A stretch of DNA of 17,422 bases from a virus (lineage: Duplodnaviria; Heunggongvirae; Uroviricota; Caudoviricetes), in the IMG/VR virus record IMGVR_UViG_2600255005_000002. One strand, 5' to 3'. The notes under the pieces are model-generated. The model was not told the origin of the DNA, did no database searches, and was given only the letters and a program-made list of their open reading frames with translations. Positions 4,061-7,740 of the stretch are shown here, one piece after another (within the stretch, counting starts at the first letter, position 1; each line of letters starts with the position of its first letter). A program made the translations under genes and the position numbers.

Positions 4061-7740
<3,680 letters not shown>

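Follow-up and report, generated by a model that had tools for sequence, protein, structure and literature searches.

The split portal gene of a lambda-type block in an Escherichia draft genome is probably an error of the deposited record

Results

Organization of the lambda-type block and its chromosomal flanks

The stretch of DNA analyzed here, 17,422 nucleotides long and referred to as the window, carries a lambda-type phage block set between chromosomal flanks (Table 1). Positions 3327 to 17309 are colinear with lambda nt 1 to 13993 at 96.7% identity. From a cos site near 3327, the block reads nu1, A, W, B, C, D, E, FI, FII, Z, U, V, G, T, H, M, and a truncated L. The heptamer of the programmed −1 frameshift of lambda G/G-T (GGGAAAG) is conserved at 13425 to 13431, in the G-T overlap. 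Divergence from lambda rises about fivefold between roughly 8820 and 9820 (from the last part of C/Nu3 through D into the first part of E), reaching about 50 mismatches per 500 bp; judged by this local profile, the interval looks like a mosaic segment of another lambdoid phage. A 12-bp in-frame insertion lies at the end of C/Nu3 (window 9040).

Both edges of the block are abrupt. On the left, at 1505/1506, sdhA meets the prophage GIY-YIG nuclease gene 83 nt into the latter, with no homology at the fusion; sdhCD is missing from this join, as is the 5′ end of sdhA. In the nearest relative of the block, a prophage that we call L054 (see below), the phage sequence left of position 1506 runs on unbroken. 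Either contigs were stitched here or the rearrangement is real, in which case succinate dehydrogenase would be abolished. On the right, at 17309/17310, L ends after about 188 codons and is joined to sequence 30 nt downstream of rpsI, just beyond a terminator-like hairpin (locus L027, 10565 to 10600). This end lacks tail genes K, I, and J as well as the attachment site, and the join is followed by rpsI downstream sequence and then by rplM, zapE, zapG, degQ, degS, and mdh. On the K-12 chromosome, the two loci are far apart, with sdhA at 0.76 Mb and rpsI at 3.38 Mb. The distance between these loci and the abruptness of both edges agree with stitched contigs, and the 15.8-kb block, set between the interior of sdhA and the vicinity of rpsI by junctions that lack homology, suggests that the record was stitched together.

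Two other places in the flanks were considered in this light. The left flank (sdhB, sucABCD, a TPR gene, and cydA) shows natural synteny; the sucD-cydA interval was rejected as another artificial join because the same arrangement occurs naturally in 1,103 E. coli genomes. In the right flank, zapE is split into ORFs of 159 and 222 amino acids because neighboring A runs together hold two more As than in K-12 (L027, 12330 to 12350). We dropped the split zapE as a measure of assembly quality because the gene is also broken elsewhere, in other public samples.

By exact-protein match, the window falls in NCBI assembly GCA_000208585.2, in AEMF01000001.1, a single 4.46-Mb record from a 2011 draft. The accession AEMF00000000 belongs to Escherichia strain TW11588, a member of cryptic clade IV (E. 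ruysiae) from Michigan soil (PMC12446263; PMC7716201). No E. coli sdhA exceeds 96.7% identity to the fragment in the window, in agreement with a clade IV source.

Table 1. Coordinates of the principal features of the window
Feature	Position	Strand	Support
sdhA, 3′ 501 codons, cut at about codon 88	1..1505	−	FAD_binding_2 match from profile position 83
Lambda-type block, from 83 nt inside the GIY-YIG nuclease gene to truncated L	1506..17309	+	
nu1 (small terminase gene), cut to 46 codons by a single-base gap	3516..3656	+	Base present in L054
B (portal), 5′ part, native codons 1 to 83	6160..6408	+	Translation; PF05136 match
GGGCTTTTTTCC, with the missing-T site between 6408 and 6409; T6 at 6410 to 6415	6406..6417	+	Lambda and L054 read GGGTCTTTTTTCC
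Out-of-frame tail of the 5′ ORF, 52 codons and TGA stop	6409..6567	+	Translation
B, 3′ part, gpB residues 85 to 533 and stop; encloses the mechanical ORF 6564 to 7760 (398 aa)	6411..7760	+	
C (protease/scaffold), start: 20 native codons, 16-bp deletion, frameshift, stop at 7852 to 7854	7741..7854	+	
C/Nu3 remainder in the native frame, 397-aa mechanical ORF	7863..9056	+	Peptidase_S49 match

A single absent base splits the portal gene B

Between W and C, an uninterrupted ORF of about 533 codons is absent; ORFs of 135 and 398 codons are found there instead. The B gene measures 1601 bases in the window versus 1602 in every phage and E. coli match. The sequence at 6400 to 6419 is atcgtcgggcttttttccgg, and a BLAST comparison with lambda (J02459) showed that GGG-CTTTTTTCC (6406 to 6417) has one base fewer than lambda GGGTCTTTTTTCC. 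The alignment places the gap just after position 6408 and assigns the absent base to the T of lambda nt 3085, the lone T between GGG and C. All six Ts at 6410 to 6415 are present; as aligned, the gap is not a contraction of this homopolymer run. The preliminary description of this DNA had reported a 1-bp deletion next to the T6 run, with lambda carrying one more base at the break. The deletion is real in the record and the extra lambda base was confirmed by the alignment, but the lost base lies outside the T run.

Translation likewise agreed with the earlier proposal that some 83 B codons are followed by an unrelated tail ending at 6567 and that about 450 codons continue in the next frame to 7760. 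The ORF at 6160 to 6567 encodes 135 amino acids, comprising residues 1 to 83 of gpB, among which S37A is the single difference from lambda gpB, and 52 out-of-frame residues before the stop at 6565 to 6567. The native-frame stretch from 6411 to 7760 encodes 449 gpB residues (85 to 533) and ends at the normal stop. Both fragments match PF05136 (lambda-family portal; Phage_portal_2) above its cutoff of 32.9 bits (N-terminal fragment, 48.8 bits; C-terminal fragment, 215.1 bits). Restoring the T yields a continuous B of 533 codons with 3 amino acid differences from lambda gpB; the restored gene differs from that of lambda by 19 synonymous and 3 nonsynonymous changes (dN/dS = 0.047).

Additional lesions in nu1 and C

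A single-base gap was also detected in nu1 by alignment with lambda (window 3653/3654; lambda nt 329), where it brings a TAA directly behind codon 46. Restored nu1 has a dN/dS of 0.07 relative to lambda, and comparison of the restored genes with lambda revealed no further decay in either B or nu1 beyond the single gaps. At lambda nt ~327 (window ~3652), 2 nt away from the nu1 gap, contigs end in hundreds of public assemblies; in 422 index blocks, the first 46 nu1 codons form a partial gene at the end of a contig (loci L040 to L046). This break point is presumably a repeat or mosaic boundary among coresident lambdoid prophages.

The third lesion is a 16-bp deletion in C at 7799/7800, between CCGCT direct repeats. 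It coincides exactly with the left edge of a block shared with the ERR13369248 assembly (1 mismatch in 4,350 bp). Close by, the contig of another assembly ends at window 7787, and a third assembly diverges. The deletion could be either real slippage or a contig join; if it is real, the prophage would be genuinely decaying.

The preliminary description had further argued that without a portal no DNA-filled head can form. A split portal gene would indeed be lethal for a phage. However, the nu1 stop, the deletion in C, and the truncation of both ends are, if real, disabling in their own right. Since nu1 and C are broken and the block ends abruptly in the same record, the portal is not what decides the viability of the element.

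Nearest relatives are intact at the B and nu1 gaps

The closest relative of the left part of the block is L054, a prophage in GCA_026721005.1 (contig ABJSDK010000002.1). Across 5,698 bp (window 1506 to 7203), the two sequences align with 0 mismatches and two gaps, namely an A in nu1 and a T in B; L054 has both of these bases and the window has neither. Farther right, the ERR13369248 assembly (L029) matches window 7795 to 12144 with one mismatch and no gaps. Over the 11.6 kb of near-identical comparison with L054 and L029, we counted 2 substitutions and 2 single-base gaps. An uninterrupted GGGTCTTTTTTCC, which the preliminary description had expected resequencing to reveal if the split were spurious, is in effect found by proxy, through L054.

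L054 is itself a remnant, having lost about 6.7 kb by a deletion that brings B (window 7203) up against H (window 13868) at L054 positions 8165 to 8170. The gpA protein was tried as a route to a close relative and set aside because its allele is too common (3,587 index blocks); L054 was among the contigs returned.

Distribution of the B allele and of neighboring frameshifts

We determined how widely the window allele occurs using 73-nt exact-allele queries against 5,426 complete E. coli genomes. About 3,150 of these genomes (3,159 matching records) contain this stretch of B, in a total of about 4,460 copies. The in-frame allele accounts for >99% of the copies, and the window allele was found in none of the 5,426 genomes. 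A different deletion, in which T6 is shortened to T5 (GGGTCTTTTTCC), was present in 8 complete E. coli records, or about 0.2% of B copies, whereas the same queries recovered no complete E. coli record in which G3 is shortened to G2 (GGTCTTTTTTCC). Among 185,579 species-representative genomes, a pattern accepting either allele gave 22 matches, all of them to the 24-nt wild-type string and 0 to the window allele. The window allele was likewise absent from IMG/VR and from the JGI metagenomes, each of which returned one match to a three-allele pattern, in both cases T5. Among the data searched, the window DNA allele is known from its source record alone, and a second data set for TW11588 was not found.

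In the scan of species-representative genomes, the wild-type lambda B string appeared on short, low-coverage contigs attributed to Chromatium, Kitasatospora, Shewanella, Pseudoxanthomonas, Bradyrhizobium, Bacillota metagenome-assembled genomes, and others (L005 to L026). Its presence in such unrelated taxa looks like contamination with lambda control DNA, which would account for many of the 22 matches.

The 135-aa product of the window falls in a 90%-identity cluster of 146 sequences that is made up of several distinct single-base deletions located in a span of about ten codons, with T5 dominant. At the DNA level, four read-run assemblies carry T5 and three carry G2, and one record carries a T4-to-T3 deletion 70 nt downstream. 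Only one other contig in the gene-position index, from SRR32022218, encodes the exact 135-aa product. It was rejected as independent confirmation of the window allele because its DNA lesion is the loss of a G from GGG. Deletions in the G3 and T6 runs, at B nt 245 to 256, recur in H131 to H138 and at loci L031, L033 to L035, L037, L038, L004, L058, and L059, and some of the prophages that carry them keep nu1 and C intact.

A single ancestral frameshift behind the T5, G2, and window alleles was considered and rejected, since these alleles reside on several different synonymous haplotypes, which points to recurrent, independent events. By this haplotype evidence, the G3 and T6 deletions are independent events at short homopolymers, representing neither an inherited allele nor a conserved configuration; they mark such runs in B as ordinary hot spots of mutation and no more.

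Discussion

Origin of the split

From the deposited sequences, we infer that the split of B is an error of the draft record AEMF01000001.1, a reading to which we assign a probability of roughly 0.62. On this account, the true sequence would be GGGTCTTTTTTCC, B would code for a normal portal of 533 residues, and no mechanism would operate at the site. The missing base would probably be a consensus error within one contig of a stitched pseudomolecule, and the difference from the near-identical relative would have arisen in sequencing or assembly, not in the cell. The lesion is private to one record, and the window differs from a near-identical sequence by indels only, as an artifact would. Given the identity with L054 over 5,698 bp, save for the T of B and the A of nu1, a draft error is the more likely cause. 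In E. coli, about ten substitutions reportedly arise spontaneously for each indel; a difference consisting of gaps only is therefore not expected from natural divergence but is typical of an erroneous consensus. The proximity of the nu1 gap to a common contig end and the position of the C deletion at a mosaic boundary also agree with an artifact.

The principal alternative is that the record is correct and shows a lambda-type prophage remnant in ordinary decay, whose portal gene was inactivated very recently by a genuine null mutation. We regard this as distinctly less probable, at about one-third in our estimation. Such a remnant would have lost the function of nu1 and C together with everything left of the GIY-YIG nuclease gene and right of the middle of L, and would make neither portal nor particle. 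Several observations count in its favor, some of them also against an error. Miscalled homopolymer lengths are the commonest indel errors, and the missing base of B is not of this kind. CCGCT direct repeats flank the C deletion, a typical mark of real slippage during replication. Natural one-base deletions occur independently in other strains no more than 5 nt from the site (T5 in 8 genomes and several assemblies; G2 in 3 runs). Three frame-breaking lesions, in nu1, B, and C, lie within 4.2 kb of an element truncated at both ends, and lambda-type head modules are often broken in public genomes, for example by truncation of B at 119 aa or by B-to-H deletions.

Set against these points, the comparison with L054 yields 0 substitutions versus two single-base gaps over 5.7 kb, and the dN/dS values of the restored genes (0.047 for B and 0.07 for nu1) give no sign of relaxed selection. 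The null-mutation account needs five rare events with almost no point mutation alongside them, in addition to an sdhA knockout in a soil isolate. Moreover, neither the B allele, nor the nu1 stop, nor either join is reproduced in any independent assembly. Were the gap nevertheless real, it would add one more dead gene to a dead prophage.

A third account, by which the gap is real but partly rescued, through addition of a U by RNA polymerase in the T6 run or a −1 shift of the ribosome on U UUU UCC, appears very improbable: the T6 run does begin one base past the gap, a −1 shift within it would restore the native frame at the cost of only Ser84 to Leu, and frameshift alleles cluster at the same spot in other prophages, but this clustering follows from the way the cluster was built, its products having been grouped at 90% identity, the candidate heptamer of the zero frame (CUU UUU UCC), U UUU UCC, departs from the canonical X XXY YYZ pattern, folding of the 100 nt downstream is ordinary (−39.6 kcal/mol, z = −0.99, with 30 of 200 shuffles folding at least as well) and gives a predicted helix that consumes the U run itself, the six Ts at 6410 to 6415 are fewer than in slipping runs, and rescue of B alone would achieve nothing while nu1 and C are broken too. 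Efficient transcriptional slippage takes place on A or T runs of about 8 to 9 bases or more. The frameshifted arrangement is also not conserved, being found in 0 of the 3,159 E. coli records, while all 22 species-representative matches and L054 are in frame. Rescue of this kind would supply a trickle of full-length S84L portal and might constitute a leaky or reversible head-assembly switch common to the other G3 and T6 deletions, an extension to which we attach next to no weight. The check for low-level slippage or recoding proposed in the preliminary description accordingly gave no support, with no canonical heptamer, an unremarkable z score of the downstream fold, and the allele in 0 of about 4,460 E. 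coli copies.

Taken together, these results suggest that the B split is most likely no biological feature and not a regulatory device. If it is an artifact, frameshifts in AEMF01000001.1 should not be taken as pseudogenes, nor its abrupt joins as rearrangements; the sdhA "knockout" would be one such misreading.

Comparison with known systems

The window resembles lambda in sharing its gene order (nu1-A-W-B-C-D-E), which runs colinear with lambda nt 1 to 13993. It differs in that the frame of B is broken past codon 83 by one absent base. Lambda G/G-T offers a precedent for frameshifting within the lambda structural operon, and the true GGGAAAG site is kept in the window at 13425; the B site, in contrast, has no canonical heptamer, conservation, or stimulatory element.

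Defective or cryptic lambdoid prophages are familiar in Escherichia, as exemplified by DLP12, Rac, and Qin of K-12. Like the pseudogenes of such elements, B in the window is a frameshifted structural gene that lies beside other broken genes, in a block with truncated ends. Unlike them, the window shows neither accumulated substitutions nor relaxed constraint, its lesions are private to one draft, and its nearest relative is intact at the positions of the B and nu1 gaps.

The window also resembles early draft assemblies that carry single-base indel errors and artifacts of contig joining. It differs from an identical relative by indels only, its joins to distant loci are abrupt, and its lesions fall at or near contig-break or mosaic points, although the base missing from B lies outside any homopolymer.
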